The position numbers and the translations under genes were made by a program. Of a DNA stretch of 40,350 bases, positions 27,693-36,305 are shown in pieces. The stretch is from a virus. The notes below the pieces were generated by a model. It was not told the origin of the DNA. It was given only the letters and a program-made list of their open reading frames with translations, and made no database searches. Each line of letters begins with the position of its first letter. Position 1 is the stretch's first letter. The stretch lies in IMG/VR virus record IMGVR_UViG_3300037419_000544; one strand, given 5' to 3'.

Positions 27693-27887
27693 GTGGTTCA
27701 GAAAGCAAGCGAGACGGTCGGCTACGGCGGATCTGTGACGGCGTTCGTCTTCGGGTTGACGCCGGGGGATTGGCAGGTCGTCGGCGTGATTGGTGGCCTT
27801 GTGTTGGGTGCAGCTGGTTTCCTGTTCAACGCCTGGCTCGGGTGGCGACGGGATCAGCGCGAGGAGCGCGCAAAGGGGACTCAATGA
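27693..27887 (+). CDS. Holin-like protein (two TM segments, charged C-terminus)
   Basis: VTAFVFGL...VVGVIGGLVLGAAGFLFNAWLGW followed by RRDQREERAK. Lies upstream of the endolysin. Confidence 0.65.
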   Translation: MVQKASETVGYGGSVTAFVFGLTPGDWQVVGVIGGLVLGAAGFLFNAWLGWRRDQREERAKGTQ

Positions 27888-28105
27888 AACTCGTTGACGA
27901 TTGCAAGGCGGTTTGGCGGCACTACTCCACCATCGCGCTGACCATGGCTGGCGGCTTGCAGGGCATGTGGGCGAGCCTGCCTGATTCCGTGCACGCCGAT
28001 CTACCGACGTGGGTCGGCAAGACGGTTGCGTGGGTGACGCTCACCGTCGCTTTGGGTGGACTGGCCGGCAAGTTCATCGACCAAGCGCCGAAGGACAAGC
28101 CGTGA
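27884..28105 (+). CDS. Second holin/antiholin-like membrane protein
   Basis: ATGA overlap. Segments WRHYSTIALTMAGGLQGMW and VAWVTLTVALGGLAG. Confidence 0.6.
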   Translation: MKLVDDCKAVWRHYSTIALTMAGGLQGMWASLPDSVHADLPTWVGKTVAWVTLTVALGGLAGKFIDQAPKDKP

Positions 28106-28626
28106 CGCCGAAGGATCTGTGCGCTCTAGGTGTGCGTATTGACCGCGCGCAGACCTACCTACCGTTTCTGGAAGACGCCATGCACGAATTCCAGATCAAC
28201 ACGCCCGCAAGGCAAGCCGCTTTCCTCGCGCAGATCCTGCATGAAAGCGGGCTGCTTCGGTGGCCTGTAGAGATTTGGGGGCCGACTTCCGCGCAGGCTC
28301 GCTATGACACCCGCTACGACCTAGGGAACGTGGCTCCCGGAGACGGGTTCAAGTACCGGGGCAGGGGGCTCATTCAGCTCACCGGACGGGCGAACTACAA
28401 GAAGGCCGGCGATGCCCTCGGAGAGGACCTCATCGTCCATCCCGAACTGCTCGGGGAGCCTGCGCTTGCCTGCCGCTCCGCCGCGTGGTTCTGGAAGGCG
28501 CACGGCTGCAATGAACTGGCAGACGCGGGGGATTTCGAGCACATCACCAAGCGCATCAACGGCGGCTTGAATGGCTACGCGGAACGTCTTGGGCTGTGGG
28601 AGAAGGCGAAAGAGGCGCTCGCGTGA
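28102..28626 (+). CDS. Endolysin, glycoside hydrolase family 19 (chitinase-like)
   Basis: AAFLAQILHESG...FKYRGRGLIQLTGRANY...INGGLNG are hallmark GH19 motifs. GTGA overlap. Confidence 0.85.
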   Translation: MTPKDLCALGVRIDRAQTYLPFLEDAMHEFQINTPARQAAFLAQILHESGLLRWPVEIWGPTSAQARYDTRYDLGNVAPGDGFKYRGRGLIQLTGRANYKKAGDALGEDLIVHPELLGEPALACRSAAWFWKAHGCNELADAGDFEHITKRINGGLNGYAERLGLWEKAKEALA

Positions 28627-28748
28627 AAGGGAAGGCCCCCGAAGCGCAATGCAATCTTGGCGGAGTGCACGCTTCGGAGGCCCTGGCGCCACCTTGCTGG
28701 TGTACCCACGCCCACCGCGAGATGGAACGTGCAGAAGGATTCTGACCG

Positions 28749-29138
28749 ATGCCAACCATCTTCGCAAGCCTCTACGTCCGCCTTCTAAGCGTCGCTGCCC
28801 TAGTGGCAGCACTCCTCCTAGGCTGGCACTTCCTCACCTCCCACTACGACAGCCAAGGCTACGAACGAGCCAAGGCAGAAGACAAGCAAGCCTCGGACGA
28901 GCAAGCCGAGCGAAACCGCGAGCTACAGAGACAGGCCGAGCGCAATTACGTCGTGAAGCGCGAGGCACAGGATCACTTCATCGTCACCACCATCAAGGAA
29001 ATCGAGCATGCCGCAGCGCCTCTTGCTACTTGTCCCTTGCCTCCTGACCTTGTGCGCTTGCTCAACGACGCCAACCATTGCGCCTCGGGAGATTCCCCCG
29101 CCTCCTGCGGCGCTGCTGATGAAGTGCCCAAGCCCTGA
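28749..29138 (+). CDS. i-spanin (Rz-like)
   Basis: N-terminal TM (LLSVAALVAALLLGW) followed by a charged coiled coil. Confidence 0.7.
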   Translation: MPTIFASLYVRLLSVAALVAALLLGWHFLTSHYDSQGYERAKAEDKQASDEQAERNRELQRQAERNYVVKREAQDHFIVTTIKEIEHAAAPLATCPLPPDLVRLLNDANHCASGDSPASCGAADEVPKP

Positions 29139-29256
29139 CGACCTTCCGGACGCAACTACTGCCAACGAGCTTGCTGAGTTCGCCGCTGGTGCTCTGAAGT
29201 TCGGAGCCTGCGAGCACTCTCGTTCGCTTGGGTTGCTGGAAGCCTGGCCGCGATGA
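29008..29256 (+). CDS. o-spanin (Rz1-like lipoprotein), overlapping the 3' part of Rz in another frame
   Basis: Signal peptide plus lipobox LLTLCAC. Pro-rich mature part. Starts inside Rz and extends beyond it. Confidence 0.7.
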   Translation: MPQRLLLLVPCLLTLCACSTTPTIAPREIPPPPAALLMKCPSPDDLPDATTANELAEFAAGALKFGACEHSRSLGLLEAWPR

Positions 29257-29678
29257 CGACGATCCTGGCAGACGCCAAAAAGCGCGTGATGGTCTGCGAC
29301 AGCAAGGCCACTCTTGATGGCTTGTGGTTCCCCATCACGAAGGTCTATCAGATCGAGGGGGAGTTGATCGGGTTCGCCGGACTCGCCACCGAGGGGACGC
29401 AATGGCTCGATTGGTACGCCAACGGCCAGCGCGGGAGGATGCCAAGTATCAACAACGTTACCCCCATGATCCTGTCCGAGAACGGGGTGAGCGTTGTCGA
29501 GTCCAGTGGCCGATTCGTCCGAGTTGAACGCGGGTTCCACGCCATCGGGTCAGGTGGGAACGCTGCTCTTGGGGCGTTCATGGCTGGCGTTGACGCCAAG
29601 AAGGCCGTCGAGATTGCCTGCCAGATCGACGCCGGTTCCGGCGGCCAGATTCACGTACACAAACTCAAGGCGCAGTAA
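29253..29678 (+). CDS. HslV / proteasome-beta-like Ntn threonine peptidase (minimal, 141 aa)
   Basis: MTTILA (Thr1), CDSKATL (HslV GDGQATL), ITKVYQI...LIGFAG (HslV VKKVRRL...IAGFAG) and AIGSGGNAALGA (HslV AIGSGGPYAQAA). ATGA coupling to Rz1. Confidence 0.6.
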   Translation: MTTILADAKKRVMVCDSKATLDGLWFPITKVYQIEGELIGFAGLATEGTQWLDWYANGQRGRMPSINNVTPMILSENGVSVVESSGRFVRVERGFHAIGSGGNAALGAFMAGVDAKKAVEIACQIDAGSGGQIHVHKLKAQ

Positions 29679-30511
29679 TGGGGAAGAAGATTCTCGTTCT
29701 GCCGGATGTTCAGGCGAAGCCGGGAAATGACTTCTCATTCCTCCGCCGCATCGGCGCTTACATGGTGGAGAAGAAGCCCGATATCGTTGTCTGCGGCGGG
29801 GACTTCAGCGACATGGCCTCGCTCAGCTCATACGACCGGGGTAAGAAGTCATTTGAAGGTAGGCGCTACAAGAGGGATGTAGAAGCGGCCCAATTCGCGA
29901 TGCAGGCTTTCCTGGCGCCTCTGACCGAATACAACTCCATGCGCCGGAAAAACAAGAAGTCGGAATACAAGCCGCGCATGGTCCTGACTCTCGGGAATCA
30001 CGAAGCTCGCATCACCAGAGCGTGCGAAGATGACCCGAAACTAGACGGCGTGCTGTCCATCAAGGATCTTGCCTACGGTGAGTACGGCTGGGAGGTGTAC
30101 CCGTTCCTAGAGGTTGTCGTCGTGGAGGGGATCGCGTTCTCCCACTACTTCACATCCGGCGTGATGGGGCGTCCGGTGACGAGTGCTCAGGCCCTGCTGA
30201 CGAAGAAACACCAATCCTGCATCGCCTTCCACCAACAGGGACTCCAGATTGCGACCGGCTACAGGGCGGATGGCGCCCTGTTGACTGCCGTCATCTGCGG
30301 CAGCGCCTACGAGCACTCCGAGGATTACCTTGGTCCGCAGGGGAACAACCATTGGCGCGGGTTCCTGATGCTGCATGCGGTGAAGGACGGAAGCTTCGAT
30401 CTGATGCCCGTCAGCCTGGAGTACATCAACAGGAAGTACCCGGAAATCCGCTACGAGACTCCGGCGTACTCAATGCCCACGGCCGAAGAAATCGCGGCTG
30501 GGCGGATGTAG
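29678..30511 (+). CDS. Calcineurin-like metallophosphoesterase
   Basis: LVLPDVQ, VCGGDFSD and LTLGNHEARI metallophosphatase motifs. The ATG shares one base with the upstream TAA. Confidence 0.75.
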   Translation: MGKKILVLPDVQAKPGNDFSFLRRIGAYMVEKKPDIVVCGGDFSDMASLSSYDRGKKSFEGRRYKRDVEAAQFAMQAFLAPLTEYNSMRRKNKKSEYKPRMVLTLGNHEARITRACEDDPKLDGVLSIKDLAYGEYGWEVYPFLEVVVVEGIAFSHYFTSGVMGRPVTSAQALLTKKHQSCIAFHQQGLQIATGYRADGALLTAVICGSAYEHSEDYLGPQGNNHWRGFLMLHAVKDGSFDLMPVSLEYINRKYPEIRYETPAYSMPTAEEIAAGRM

Positions 30512-30524
30512 CGCAAATACGAGT

Positions 30525-30549
30525 AAATGCCATTTACTGGCATTTTCCC
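30525..30549 (+). terminator. Weak hairpin terminator at the end of the late operon
   Basis: AAATGCCA-TTTAC-TGGCATTT followed by TCC. The T-run is partly inside the stem. Confidence 0.4.
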
Positions 30550-30565
30550 TGCGCTGTTCGATTCG

Positions 30566-30593
30566 CAAAAGAAAGCCCGCACAGGCGGCGGGC
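30566..30593 (-). terminator. Intrinsic terminator ending the leftward operon
   Basis: Minus-strand GCCCGC-loop-GCGGGC followed by TTTCTTTTG. Confidence 0.7.
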
Positions 30594-30684
30594 CAAGGAT
30601 CTACCGGCTTGGGAACTTGCCGGGCCGCAGGGGGTTGCGGCGAGGTGATTATGCTCCTTGGCTCTGGCTTGTTTCAGTGATGGA

Positions 30685-35138: not shown

Positions 35139-35374
35139 TTGCGCTCCGTTTCGATGGTGACGCCGTGGTGCGCGGCGATGAGGGTCTGATGGCCGCCGAA
35201 CGCTCGCAGAAGGTCGTCAGCAATCTCCTCGTGGTAGCCCTCGCTGATCGCTTCGACGCGCGCGATGATCTGCTCCACTGGGATCACTTCCTTCGTGCGA
35301 ATCTCAAGCGCGAACTTGATGCGCACGCCATTGACCGGGCAGTTCGCGAAAAACTCGGTGCGATAGATGTTCAA
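35132..35374 (-). CDS. 80-aa QueF-like T-fold protein (Cys-Pro-x-x-Gly strand)
   Basis: EFFANCPVNGVRIKFALEI...EGYHEEIADDL compared with B. subtilis QueF EFTSLCPKTGQPDFATIYI...HGDFHEDCMN. TTG start in a TTGA overlap. Confidence 0.35.
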   Translation of the reverse strand: MNIYRTEFFANCPVNGVRIKFALEIRTKEVIPVEQIIARVEAISEGYHEEIADDLLRAFGGHQTLIAAHHGVTIETERKC

Positions 35375-36099
35375 GCGAACACCTCCTGTTGAATGGGAAC
35401 TGGCGCCCAGGCGGGCGCGCTGTTGTGGGCTTCGATGCGCTCCGCAATCACTGCCGCGCGCTGAGCTGCGGACGGTGGCAGGTACATGCCGAAACGATCA
35501 AGGGAGCCGCTGTTGACGGCGGCGTTCGTGCTGTCCGCGCTCGCGAGCGGCAGCTTGGAGAAGATGGCCGGGTCGAGCATGCGCAGGCCGTGCAGCTTGG
35601 CGAGCGGCCGACCTTCCGGGCACACCGCGTTCATGGCCTCGGACATGCGGCCCCACCAGGCGGAAGTTCCAGGGCTGGACCACTCGCCGGAAGACCCGAG
35701 TGCGACGGTGCGATAGACGCGGCACAGCCGCTCCAGCCGTCCGATGCTCTCGTGCAGGTGCCACACCGGGACGCCCGGTAGACGAGCGGGCCAGTCGCGC
35801 AACAGCGCGTCGTTGTCCGCCTCCTCGCCGTCGATCACGTCGGGGATCAGCGCCCAATCGAAGCCGGGATGGCGGTGCCATTCCTCGCACCAGCGGGTAT
35901 AGCCCTCCACGTCCAGAACCTCGCCGCGCTTCCACACGCTGAACGCGCCGTTGTCGAACACGAAGGACTGGCAGGCTTCGGCCACGATCCCCATGTCATC
36001 CTGACGCGGGAACGGGACGAGCGCGTGCCGGCCCATGAGGAATCGGGCAACGTCCTGGCGCGTGCCGCCGACAGGCGTGCCGTGGTAGTGGATCAACAC
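35371..36099 (-). CDS. TGT-superfamily (DpdA-like) candidate DNA/RNA guanine transglycosylase
   Basis: Ordered motifs HGTPVGGT, FVFDNGAFS, ALIPDVIDG, VALGSSGE and LASADSTNAA parallel TGT TPxFMPVGT, DSGGFQ, DE, AIGG and FDCVxPTR. GTG/TTG start at 36099/36096 after AGGAGG. Confidence 0.45.
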   Translation of the reverse strand: MLIHYHGTPVGGTRQDVARFLMGRHALVPFPRQDDMGIVAEACQSFVFDNGAFSVWKRGEVLDVEGYTRWCEEWHRHPGFDWALIPDVIDGEEADNDALLRDWPARLPGVPVWHLHESIGRLERLCRVYRTVALGSSGEWSSPGTSAWWGRMSEAMNAVCPEGRPLAKLHGLRMLDPAIFSKLPLASADSTNAAVNSGSLDRFGMYLPPSAAQRAAVIAERIEAHNSAPAWAPVPIQQEVFA

Positions 36100-36305
36100 C
36101 CGCCCTCCTGCTTCGGCGCGCACGCCCCCACGCCAGAGGCGTCGCGCTCGGCGAGCAGATCGCGCATGCGCTTGGCGAGGTACATCGACTGGCAGCGCCA
36201 GCAGCCGGAAACGCCGTCGCTGTCGCAGCGGCGCGGCTTGATCTTCTCGTCCATGAAGCGCAGCGTCGATTCCAACGCTGCGCGATCCTTGATCGGCTCA
36301 GCCAT
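36093..36305 (-). CDS. Hypothetical Cys-rich small protein
   Basis: Start MAEPIKDR (8-nt overlap with the upstream gene). Confidence 0.5.
   Translation of the reverse strand: MAEPIKDRAALESTLRFMDEKIKPRRCDSDGVSGCWRCQSMYLAKRMRDLLAERDASGVGACAPKQEGGC

Follow-up and report, generated by a model that had tools for sequence, protein, structure and literature searches.

The PPH family of proteasome homologues was described by Fuchs et al. in 2021 as proteins of about 140 residues which belong to group I together with HslV and BPH, which keep the catalytic triad and the oxyanion glycine, and which uniquely lack helix H2; the authors listed 324 nr90 sequences of the family (PMC8665760). Here we describe a member of this family that is encoded in IMG/VR virus record IMGVR_UViG_3300037419_000544, a stretch of 40,350 nucleotides (the window) which, from its gene content, is the whole genome of a temperate P22-like podovirus, and we report that its gene is translationally coupled to that of a calcineurin-like metallophosphoesterase (MPE), an arrangement which recurs in related phages. 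Neither ‘phosphoesterase’ nor ‘phosphatase’ occurs in the text of PMC8665760, which describes no phosphoesterase neighbourhood, and our literature searches found no experimental work on PPH and none on a pairing of an HslV-type peptidase with an MPE. An earlier note on this DNA, made from the sequence alone, knew of no described function for such a pair; we likewise found no description of the pairing, but the peptidase itself belongs to the published PPH family and to phrog_1040.

Among the relatives of PPH, HslV (ClpQ) has a known docking surface for the HslU ATPase, the C-terminal tails of which insert into inter-subunit pockets formed by F54, F57, A79, K80 and Q114 of HslV (PMC6429459). 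BPH is described as a 14-subunit double ring in a structural paper of 2017 (PMC5777263). For the partner enzyme, one characterised phage MPE serves as a precedent, gp48 of mycobacteriophage A10ZJ24, an early, host-toxic DNase which aids immune evasion (PMC12287305).

We are highly confident that the 141-residue gene of the window is a PPH with an intact Thr1/Asp/Lys/Gly-Ser-Gly site and without H2, and that it forms a conserved, translationally coupled cassette with a divergent MPE. In this P22-like temperate phage the cassette closes the late operon and is transcribed together with the lysis genes. Both open reading frames (ORFs) are genuine genes, judged by the number of their homologues, and both lie where the earlier note had placed them, with all of the motifs that it had read from the sequence (MTTI, CDSKATL, ITKVYQI, GFAG and AIGSGG in the first, PDVQ, GGDFSD and GNHE in the second). 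The chaining between the Rz1-like gene and the MPE gene, first by ATGA and then by TAATG, is likewise present in the sequence. The features of the cassette which carry the argument are as follows.

29253-29678, plus strand: PPH-family proteasome homologue, 141 aa (phrog_1040, profile, AlphaFold2 (AF2) and Foldseek)
29253-29256, plus strand: ATGA overlap of the PPH start codon with the TGA stop codon of the Rz1-like gene (sequence)
29256-29258, plus strand: codon of Thr2, the predicted N-terminal nucleophile after removal of Met, which aligns with HslV Thr1
29298-29342, plus strand: codons of Asp16 (29298-29300) through Lys30 (29340-29342), these two being equivalent to proteasome Asp17 and Lys33
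29370-29381, plus strand: GFAG, G40 to G43, oxyanion-hole region, equivalent of HslV G45-FAG
29547-29558, plus strand: G99-S100-G101-G102, equivalent of HslV Gly-Ser124-Gly-Gly
29676-29680, plus strand: TAATG overlap, in which the PPH stop codon and the MPE start codon share the A at 29678 (sequence)
29678-30511, plus strand: calcineurin-like MPE, 277 aa, class A / phrog_221 (Pfam, PHROG and AF2)

The 141-residue protein is a PPH

Taken singly, the sequence of the 141-residue protein gives only marginal matches to HslV (Pfam Proteasome 18.1 bits against a cut-off of 22.4; PDB E 0.14), and the relationship emerges from profiles. A profile of PPH homologues compared with the PDB matched BPH at E 7.6e-9, mainly over the C-terminal half, and HslV from end to end at E 1.5e-6, with Thr2 placed on HslV Thr1. 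The AF2 model (pLDDT 96.6) has helices at residues 45-56, 102-110 and 115-125 and a strand at 69-75, with a single helix where HslV has both H1 and H2, and its best Foldseek matches are to HslV (E 9.8e-9, TM 0.80-0.82 on the query), followed by BPH and the 20S beta subunits. The HslV-like fold and catalytic landmarks proposed in the earlier note are thus borne out, and the best structural and profile matches all fall inside the N-terminal nucleophile (Ntn) hydrolase/proteasome fold.

The family to which this protein belongs is large. Seventy homologue clusters were found with the protein itself (best E 4.7e-88, lengths of 129-147 aa), almost all of them metagenomic and many carrying the JGI label ‘HslVU peptidase subunit’, and an exhaustive profile search at E<=1e-10 returned 5,761 representative clusters at 50% identity, nearly all of about 140 aa, so that PPH is far more abundant in metagenomes than the 324 nr90 sequences of PMC8665760 suggest. 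Conservation was scored in an alignment of 38 PPH homologues which are 31-81% identical. In these, T2, T3, D16, S17, K30 and S100 are conserved at 90% or more, with D16 and K30 nearly invariant, and G40, G43, G99 and G101 are invariant; the Thr, Lys and Ser-Gly-Gly residues on which the earlier note relied are conserved in these homologues.

Membership of PPH was assigned through phrog_1040 (‘peptidase HslV family’), matched at E 1.8e-25, as a proxy for the PPH reference WP_042125023.1 and the authors’ HMM. The protein is compact, without a propeptide, starts with M-T-T, and has no C-terminal S12/H5 elements; H2 is missing, while H1, H3, H4 and the beta core are present; the catalytic triad and the oxyanion glycine are retained; BPH and then HslV are its best PDB profile matches, in keeping with group I; and, like the PPHs of tailed phages and prophages, it is found in a phage genome and has its relatives on phage contigs. 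Nothing sets the window protein apart from the family of PMC8665760. A longer relative, a PPH-like ‘nucleophile aminohydrolase’ of 266 aa with a C-terminal extension, is found in Vibrio phage 1.193.O (L025, 3001-3801).

The protein is not HslV, however, as the curated HslV equivalog models are missed by a wide margin (16.6-17.3 bits against cut-offs of 157.75 for TIGR03692 and 137 for NF003964). For a residue-level comparison, the E. coli HslV sequence was aligned to the PPH profile, its numbering having been checked against the positions given in PMC6429459. In this alignment T1, D17, K33, G45 and S124-G-G of HslV correspond to T2, D16, K30, G40 and S100-G-G of PPH, and HslV residues at about 73-89, which make up helix H2 and include A79, K80 and L88, are deleted; the central region that the earlier note had found to be about 20 residues shorter is this loss of H2. 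The remaining HslU-pocket residues are changed, F54 to T, F57 to L and Q114 to R. No AAA+ or HslU-like protein is encoded among the larger ORFs of the window, in agreement with the earlier note. Canonical docking of PPH on HslU appears unlikely, because H2 and the pocket residues have been lost and the phage has no ATPase gene.

Coupling to four classes of phosphoesterase

An MPE gene lies directly downstream of PPH, on the same strand, in 24/24 loci in which the PPH is at least 46% identical to that of the window (about 21 of them non-redundant, the window included; the window, L001-L013, L017, L028, L029, L031, L032, L037, L114 and L122-L124), and this is the co-occurrence in relatives that the earlier note had called for. 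The junction between the two genes always falls between -11 and +2 nt in these relatives. The paired MPEs belong to four divergent classes. Class A is the window type, phrog_221; class B (L004, L008) is 29% identical to class A; class C (L007, L009-L011, L013, L017, L028, L114) consists of proteins of about 385 aa with the motifs DxH, GDxxH, GNHD and GHxHH, which match phrog_704, ‘DNA repair exonuclease’, at E 1.9e-122; and class D is a 542-aa protein in L123 and L124. Most of the paired MPEs carry at their N-terminus a LysR-type helix-turn-helix (HTH) domain (PF00126, E 1e-6 to 1e-7), which is absent from some, among them those of the window, L029, L032 and L122.

The clearest example of exchange is the PPH protein P0052, which precedes a class A MPE in L003 (6001-7411) and a class B MPE in L004 (1204-2605), two contigs of one study, which points to a recombination event placed precisely where the two genes meet. 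The flanking genes of the paired loci also vary, with three endolysin families (lysozyme, GH108 and GH19) as one example. The coupling of PPH with MPE is genuine, clade-specific and modular.

Other contexts of PPH were also seen. A second recurrent one, for PPHs that are 28-37% identical to that of the window, is immediately beside or between genes for the small and large terminase subunits, called as such from the appearance of their sequences only, in L014 (4309-6989), L015 (4917-7152), L019 (4731-7241), L020 (520-3248) and L024 (157-3157). In L125 (3501-3944), a 54-kb contig, a PPH 34% identical to that of the window lies inside a sialic-acid-type sugar cluster with NeuB, CTP_transf_3 and an acetyltransferase. 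A search of genome contigs with the single PPH protein gave no match, the same search with a tighter PPH alignment gave one 3.4-kb contig from a metagenome-assembled genome, and a scan of metagenome contigs gave eight loci, mostly short. Erwinia phage Pecta was considered as a distant PPH–MPE pair and rejected, its neighbouring gene encoding an RNase H-fold/PolB-exo-like exonuclease.

The metallophosphoesterase

The identification of the partner as a calcineurin-like phosphoesterase, also made in the earlier note, is supported by Pfam Metallophos (PF00149), which the protein passes at 25.4 bits against a cut-off of 21.5, by Foldseek, and by phrog_221, matched at E 6e-47. A search at E<=1e-10 returned 6,670 homologues, and among cultured phages 495 genomes encode one, most of them from phages of Pseudomonas and Acinetobacter. 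Sequence and profile searches against the PDB found no match. The AF2 model (pLDDT 88) has a generic calcineurin-like fold, matched by Foldseek at E of about 1e-5 to Rv0805, Mre11/SbcD, LpxH, Ap4A hydrolase and GpdQ with TM of 0.35-0.5, and its viral structural matches are unannotated phage phosphatases with TM up to 0.84. Conservation of the motifs was scored in 34 homologues.

29705-29713, plus strand: motif I, D10-V-Q12, with Gln for the canonical His; D10 and Q12 invariant
29798-29812, plus strand: motif II, G41-D42-F-S-D45; G41, D42 and D45 invariant
29993-30004, plus strand: motif III, G106-N107-H108-E109; invariant
30143-30238, plus strand: motif IV, His156 (30143-30145), to motif V, H185-Q-Q187 (30230-30238); H156, H185 and Q187 invariant
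30440-30508, plus strand: conserved C-terminal tail, residues 255-277, P.YS.PT...E..AGRM; pLDDT 55-71

Motifs II to IV are canonical, and motifs I and V have an invariant Gln in place of two metal-ligand His residues of one metal site; MPEs of classes B and C have the usual DxH and GHxH. In the C-terminal tail P262, Y264, P267, E271, A274 and G275 are invariant. This tail is present in 10/14 PPH-adjacent MPEs and in 4/5 of those adjacent to a small HExxH protein described below (14/19 with an adjacent peptidase gene), as compared with 1/64 MPEs without a nearby peptidase and 1/76 of all MPEs without an adjacent peptidase gene. A role of the tail in docking or as a cleavage site is conceivable, with the reservation that its correlation with the peptidase is confounded by phylogeny and has exceptions.

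Phosphoesterases without PPH, and a possible substitute peptidase

Five close MPE homologues lie on long contigs, three of them with PPH directly upstream, one (L030) with a 126-aa HExxH protein in this place, and one (L033) with no peptidase. In L033 (4001-4969) an HTH–MPE with the C-terminal tail lies between the portal and S49 prohead protease genes of a lambda-like head module. A wider survey from the MPE side covered 80 IMG/VR loci with MPEs 58-84% identical to that of the window, the upstream region being readable in 75. PPH is adjacent in L037 only, a small HExxH protein overlaps the MPE start in L034, L035, L036 and L054, and the remaining loci surveyed are those of apparently lytic phages of low GC content with unrelated, tiny upstream ORFs.

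The HExxH proteins form a zinc-peptidase-like family of 89-128 aa which fills the PPH slot directly 5' of the MPE in five sister loci (L030 3624-4004; L034 3732-4001; L035 about 1605-1967; L036 3439-3792; L054 3396-3782). H83, E84, H87 and a distal H112 are invariant in the five sequences, and one member matches phrog_13742, ‘peptidase’, at E 2.8e-5; comparison with the PDB gave only non-significant matches to Spartan, IrrE and YbeY, and a SprT-like match had E 0.044. The possibility that these proteins are distant PPHs was rejected, the hhalign probability being 0.2%.

A looser linkage is seen in lytic-type phages. In seven loci with GC of 41-46% (L057, L059, L072, L074, L076, L079, L090) a PPH of 148-151 aa is found 2.5-4.3 kb downstream of the MPE and directly 3' of a ribonucleotide-reductase-like gene of about 550 aa, in a nucleotide-metabolism operon which also carries the MPE, a 5'-3' exonuclease-like gene and MazG-like genes. 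Weaker relatives of the HExxH protein occur about 2 kb upstream of the MPE in five further loci (L039, L040, L043, L049, L085).

Among cultured phages, 2,002 records contain a class C MPE, Jersey-like, Dhillonvirus and T1-like phages among them. In the Rhodobacter phage RcSalem (Casjensviridae; L126, 1991-3664) gene 50, which encodes a class C HTH–MPE, overlaps the end of the spanin-like Rz/Rz1 genes 48 and 49 and is the last gene of the late operon; it thus has the position that the cassette has in the window, but no peptidase accompanies it. Small genes that precede class C MPEs in RcSalem, phiA005 and Pam1 were considered as peptidases and rejected, those of RcSalem being spanin-like.

The genome and the position of the cassette

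The phage encodes a terminase, a P22-like portal, scaffold, major capsid, head-completion and ejection proteins and a tailspike, together with a CI-like repressor, an O-like replication protein, NinB, NinG and an integrase, and its host is probably a proteobacterium. Among cultured phages, the closest portal (54% identity) belongs to Xanthomonas phage PBR31, and none was found with near-identical DNA. The genes and signals around the cassette are as follows.

27693-29256, plus strand: lysis cassette directly 5' of PPH (Pfam and PHROG matches, also for its members below)
27693-27887, plus strand: holin
27770-28105, plus strand: holin-like DUF7940 protein
within 28009-28626, plus strand: GH19 endolysin
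28749-29138, plus strand: Rz-like
29008-29256, plus strand: Rz1-like
30525-30594, no strand assigned: two hairpins past the MPE stop codon (30525-30545 and 30574-30594), convergent terminator region

The pair lies, as had been claimed, at the end of the late operon beside these hairpins, of which that at 30525-30545 is palindromic and that at 30574-30594 has a T-run serving the minus-strand genes; minus-strand genes and then the integrase follow downstream. The number of terminator-like sites near the locus is not above the shuffled expectation. The pair is probably expressed late, with the lysis genes, because PPH is coupled to the Rz1-like gene by the ATGA overlap and no promoter-like site was seen upstream of PPH.

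Elsewhere in the window, the early region encodes a DpdA/tgt-like protein (35371-36123, minus strand; phrog_887, ‘queuine tRNA-ribosyltransferase’, E 5e-68), a hint that the phage DNA may carry 7-deazaguanine modifications; three minus-strand ORFs adjoining the DpdA-like gene gave no PDB sequence match, so that none could be identified as a gene of the QueC/D/E type.

Proposed function and alternatives

Our preferred explanation, to which we give a probability of about 35-40%, is that the cassette combines an HslU-independent peptidase with a DNA-directed phosphodiesterase, the two acting on nucleoprotein targets late in infection. Host methionine aminopeptidase would expose Thr2 of PPH, which would then work as a peptidase without HslU; the grounds for this independence are the deletion of H2, the changed pocket residues and the lack of an AAA+ gene in the phage. 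The partner MPE would be a DNA-directed phosphodiesterase or nuclease, with DNA as the suggested substrate because of the HTH fusions, the Mre11/SbcD-like fold and the precedent of gp48, and in most relatives the LysR-type HTH may tether the enzyme to DNA. Both enzymes would act on one nucleoprotein late in infection, the peptidase removing or trimming the protein and the MPE cutting phosphodiester bonds. A sequence-specific PPH:MPE complex is probably not formed. Selection seems to preserve a small peptidase beside an MPE and not a specific fit between the two proteins; peptidase activity would be what is selected, because identical PPHs tolerate different MPE classes and because PPH can be replaced by the HExxH protein.

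Several observations weigh against this explanation. The fold matches of the MPE are generic and include cyclic-nucleotide, Ap4A and lipid phosphodiesterases, and the replacement of two metal-ligand His residues by Gln in class A could alter its chemistry. As the MPE of the window has no HTH, the targeting of DNA is extrapolated from its relatives. Enzymes of the proteasome family usually need an oligomeric chamber and an unfoldase. With respect to the linkage, an adjacent PPH was present in 1/75 of the readable loci of the MPE-side survey (L037) and absent from the other 74, so that the MPE does not need a peptidase, since most of its homologues have no adjacent one; the more distant PPHs (35% identity or less) have no adjacent MPE; the class D proteins are called MPEs from motifs only; and the co-occurrence counts, uncorrected for shared ancestry, come from related metagenomic phages.

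A more specific form of the preferred explanation, which we consider very doubtful, is that the peptidase and the (HTH–)MPE are a dedicated phage module for clearing or processing DNA-bound protein, in which the peptidase, either PPH or one of a SprT-like zincin type, would degrade the protein and the Mre11-like MPE would cut the DNA or a protein–DNA phosphodiester link. If this were the case, nucleoprotein complexes might be released or broken down by the module at a late stage of infection, for example those with a recombinase or topoisomerase that has become trapped, with nucleoid proteins or with host DNA.

Among the alternatives, the one that survives best, unlikely as it is, is that PPH, or the HExxH protein in its place, matures or controls the MPE by cleaving it, for example at the HTH or the C-terminal tail, and so activates or silences a potentially toxic nuclease at the right time. 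Matched co-expression is favoured by a gene order in which the peptidase comes first and by the overlap of its stop codon with the start codon of the MPE, the conserved, low-confidence tail is almost confined to the peptidase-coupled clade, and such control would be useful given that the characterised phage MPE, gp48, is toxic to its host. However, identical PPHs pair with classes A and B, which have no common N-terminal sequence or tail, and the tail is absent from classes B, C and D; 277-aa forms without an HTH still keep their PPH, and L033 has both the HTH and the tail with no peptidase neighbour, while the correlation between tail and peptidase is itself confounded by shared ancestry.

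It is rather less probable that the two are independent accessory genes (morons) which occupy a permissive late-operon end and are inherited together without a functional link. That each gene can exist alone is clear, as PPH is found without an adjacent MPE beside terminase, ribonucleotide-reductase-like and sugar genes, hundreds to thousands of phages have an MPE but no peptidase with it, and the class C MPE of RcSalem sits in the same post-spanin slot without PPH; every count in favour of linkage is, moreover, drawn from related metagenomic phages. Chance co-inheritance is nevertheless difficult to reconcile with an adjacency of 24/24 that persists through four changes of MPE class and through changes in the lysis and early genes on either side, with a junction that is always overlapping or nearly so, with the replacement of PPH by a peptidase-like protein and not by random genes, and with the recurrence of both peptidase types, at distances of a few kb from the MPE, in lytic phages of low GC content that are unrelated.

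We think it very doubtful that the cassette is an anti-defence pair, in which the MPE would hydrolyse the signals of CBASS, Pycsar or Thoeris systems, or damage host DNA to silence defence genes, and PPH would degrade the effectors. There is a published case of a phage MPE that acts against host defence, A10ZJ24 gp48 (PMC12287305), and the structural matches of the window MPE include the cyclic-nucleotide phosphodiesterase Rv0805 and Ap4A hydrolase, but gp48 is early, whereas the window pair is coupled to lysis genes, which would be late for countering immunity. The window MPE also has no BLAST-level similarity to mycobacteriophage MPEs of the gp48 type, and the HTH fusions in its relatives suggest DNA over soluble nucleotides.

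The earlier note had raised the possibility that the 141-residue protein assembles with, or poisons, host HslU; such hijacking or titration would redirect or block ATP-dependent proteolysis of the host. In its favour, PPH is homologous to HslV, with the active site kept, and no ATPase is encoded by the phage itself. With H2 and its A79, K80 and L88 deleted, F54, F57 and Q114 changed, and a score of some 17 bits against equivalog cut-offs of 137-158, we regard this as highly improbable, and the closest solved relative by profile is in any case BPH, described as a 14-subunit double ring in PMC5777263. Least credible of all is lysogenic-conversion defence, suggested in the same note, in which the pair would be a prophage-expressed defence or toxin–antitoxin-like cassette protecting the lysogen, and which the position of the pair between the lysis genes and the integrase/attachment end, a common one for morons, would suit, but against which stand the ATGA coupling to the Rz1-like gene without an upstream promoter-like site, the presence of the same genes in nucleotide-metabolism operons of apparently lytic phages, and a search of PADLOC-DB 2.0 that found no match for PPH or the window MPE and weak HTH-region matches for one relative only.

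Considering what the locus adds, the PPH family was already known, and it is the conserved coupling with MPE and the alternation with an HExxH protein that appear to be new, neither being described in the literature searched. PPH is the only mainly viral branch of the proteasome family, abundant to the extent of thousands of clusters, and the coupling pattern gives a first functional hypothesis for it, namely HslU-independent proteolysis tied to a DNA-directed phosphodiesterase, which extends to the widespread phage phosphoesterases of phrog_221 and of phrog_704, with about 2,000 cultured phage genomes encoding the second of these. Should the link prove real, the cassette would reveal the way in which a minimal homologue of the proteasome can function in the absence of an unfoldase; otherwise this would be an ordinary accessory-gene pair.

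Comparison with known systems

PPH has in common with HslV the Ntn-hydrolase/proteasome beta fold and the equivalents of Thr1, Asp17, Lys33, Gly45 and Ser124-Gly-Gly, but it is about 35 residues shorter, lacks H2 and the residues of the HslU-tail pocket, and is encoded by a phage which has no hslU partner gene. BPH (PDB 5ovs, 5ovu), the best PDB profile match, is like PPH a group I proteasome homologue, and differs in being a cellular protein of about 200 aa with both helix pairs, whereas PPH has about 140 aa and is phage-encoded. We know of no ATPase partner reported for BPH.

The MPE resembles the phage enzymes of phrog_221 and phrog_704 (labelled ‘metallo-phosphoesterase’ and ‘DNA repair exonuclease’) in its calcineurin-like fold and in being widespread among phages. 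With gp48 it has a calcineurin-like motif layout in common, D10, D41 and H175, which are essential in gp48, being paralleled by D10, D42 and H156/H185 in the window MPE, but gp48 is early and the window MPE is probably late and coupled to a peptidase. Mre11/SbcD is among its best structural matches, but at TM of 0.35-0.5 this is no better than LpxH or Rv0805, the capping domain is not evident in the window MPE, and no SMC-like or Rad50/SbcC-type ATPase partner is encoded among the larger ORFs of the window.

For the cassette as a whole the parallels are ones of analogy only. In ImmA/IrrE–ImmR and CapP–CapH a small peptidase gene abuts the gene of an HTH DNA-binding protein, a likeness of arrangement and not of sequence membership, since here the HTH is fused to an enzyme and not to a repressor. 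In eukaryotic DNA–protein-crosslink repair, Spartan/Wss1 or the proteasome act as alternatives, together with a phosphodiesterase, MRE11 or TDP; were the cassette indeed a module for DNA-bound proteins, it would be a bacterial-virus counterpart of this route, in which proteasome-type (PPH) and SprT-like zincin-type peptidases would likewise be used alternatively, together with the MPE as phosphodiesterase.

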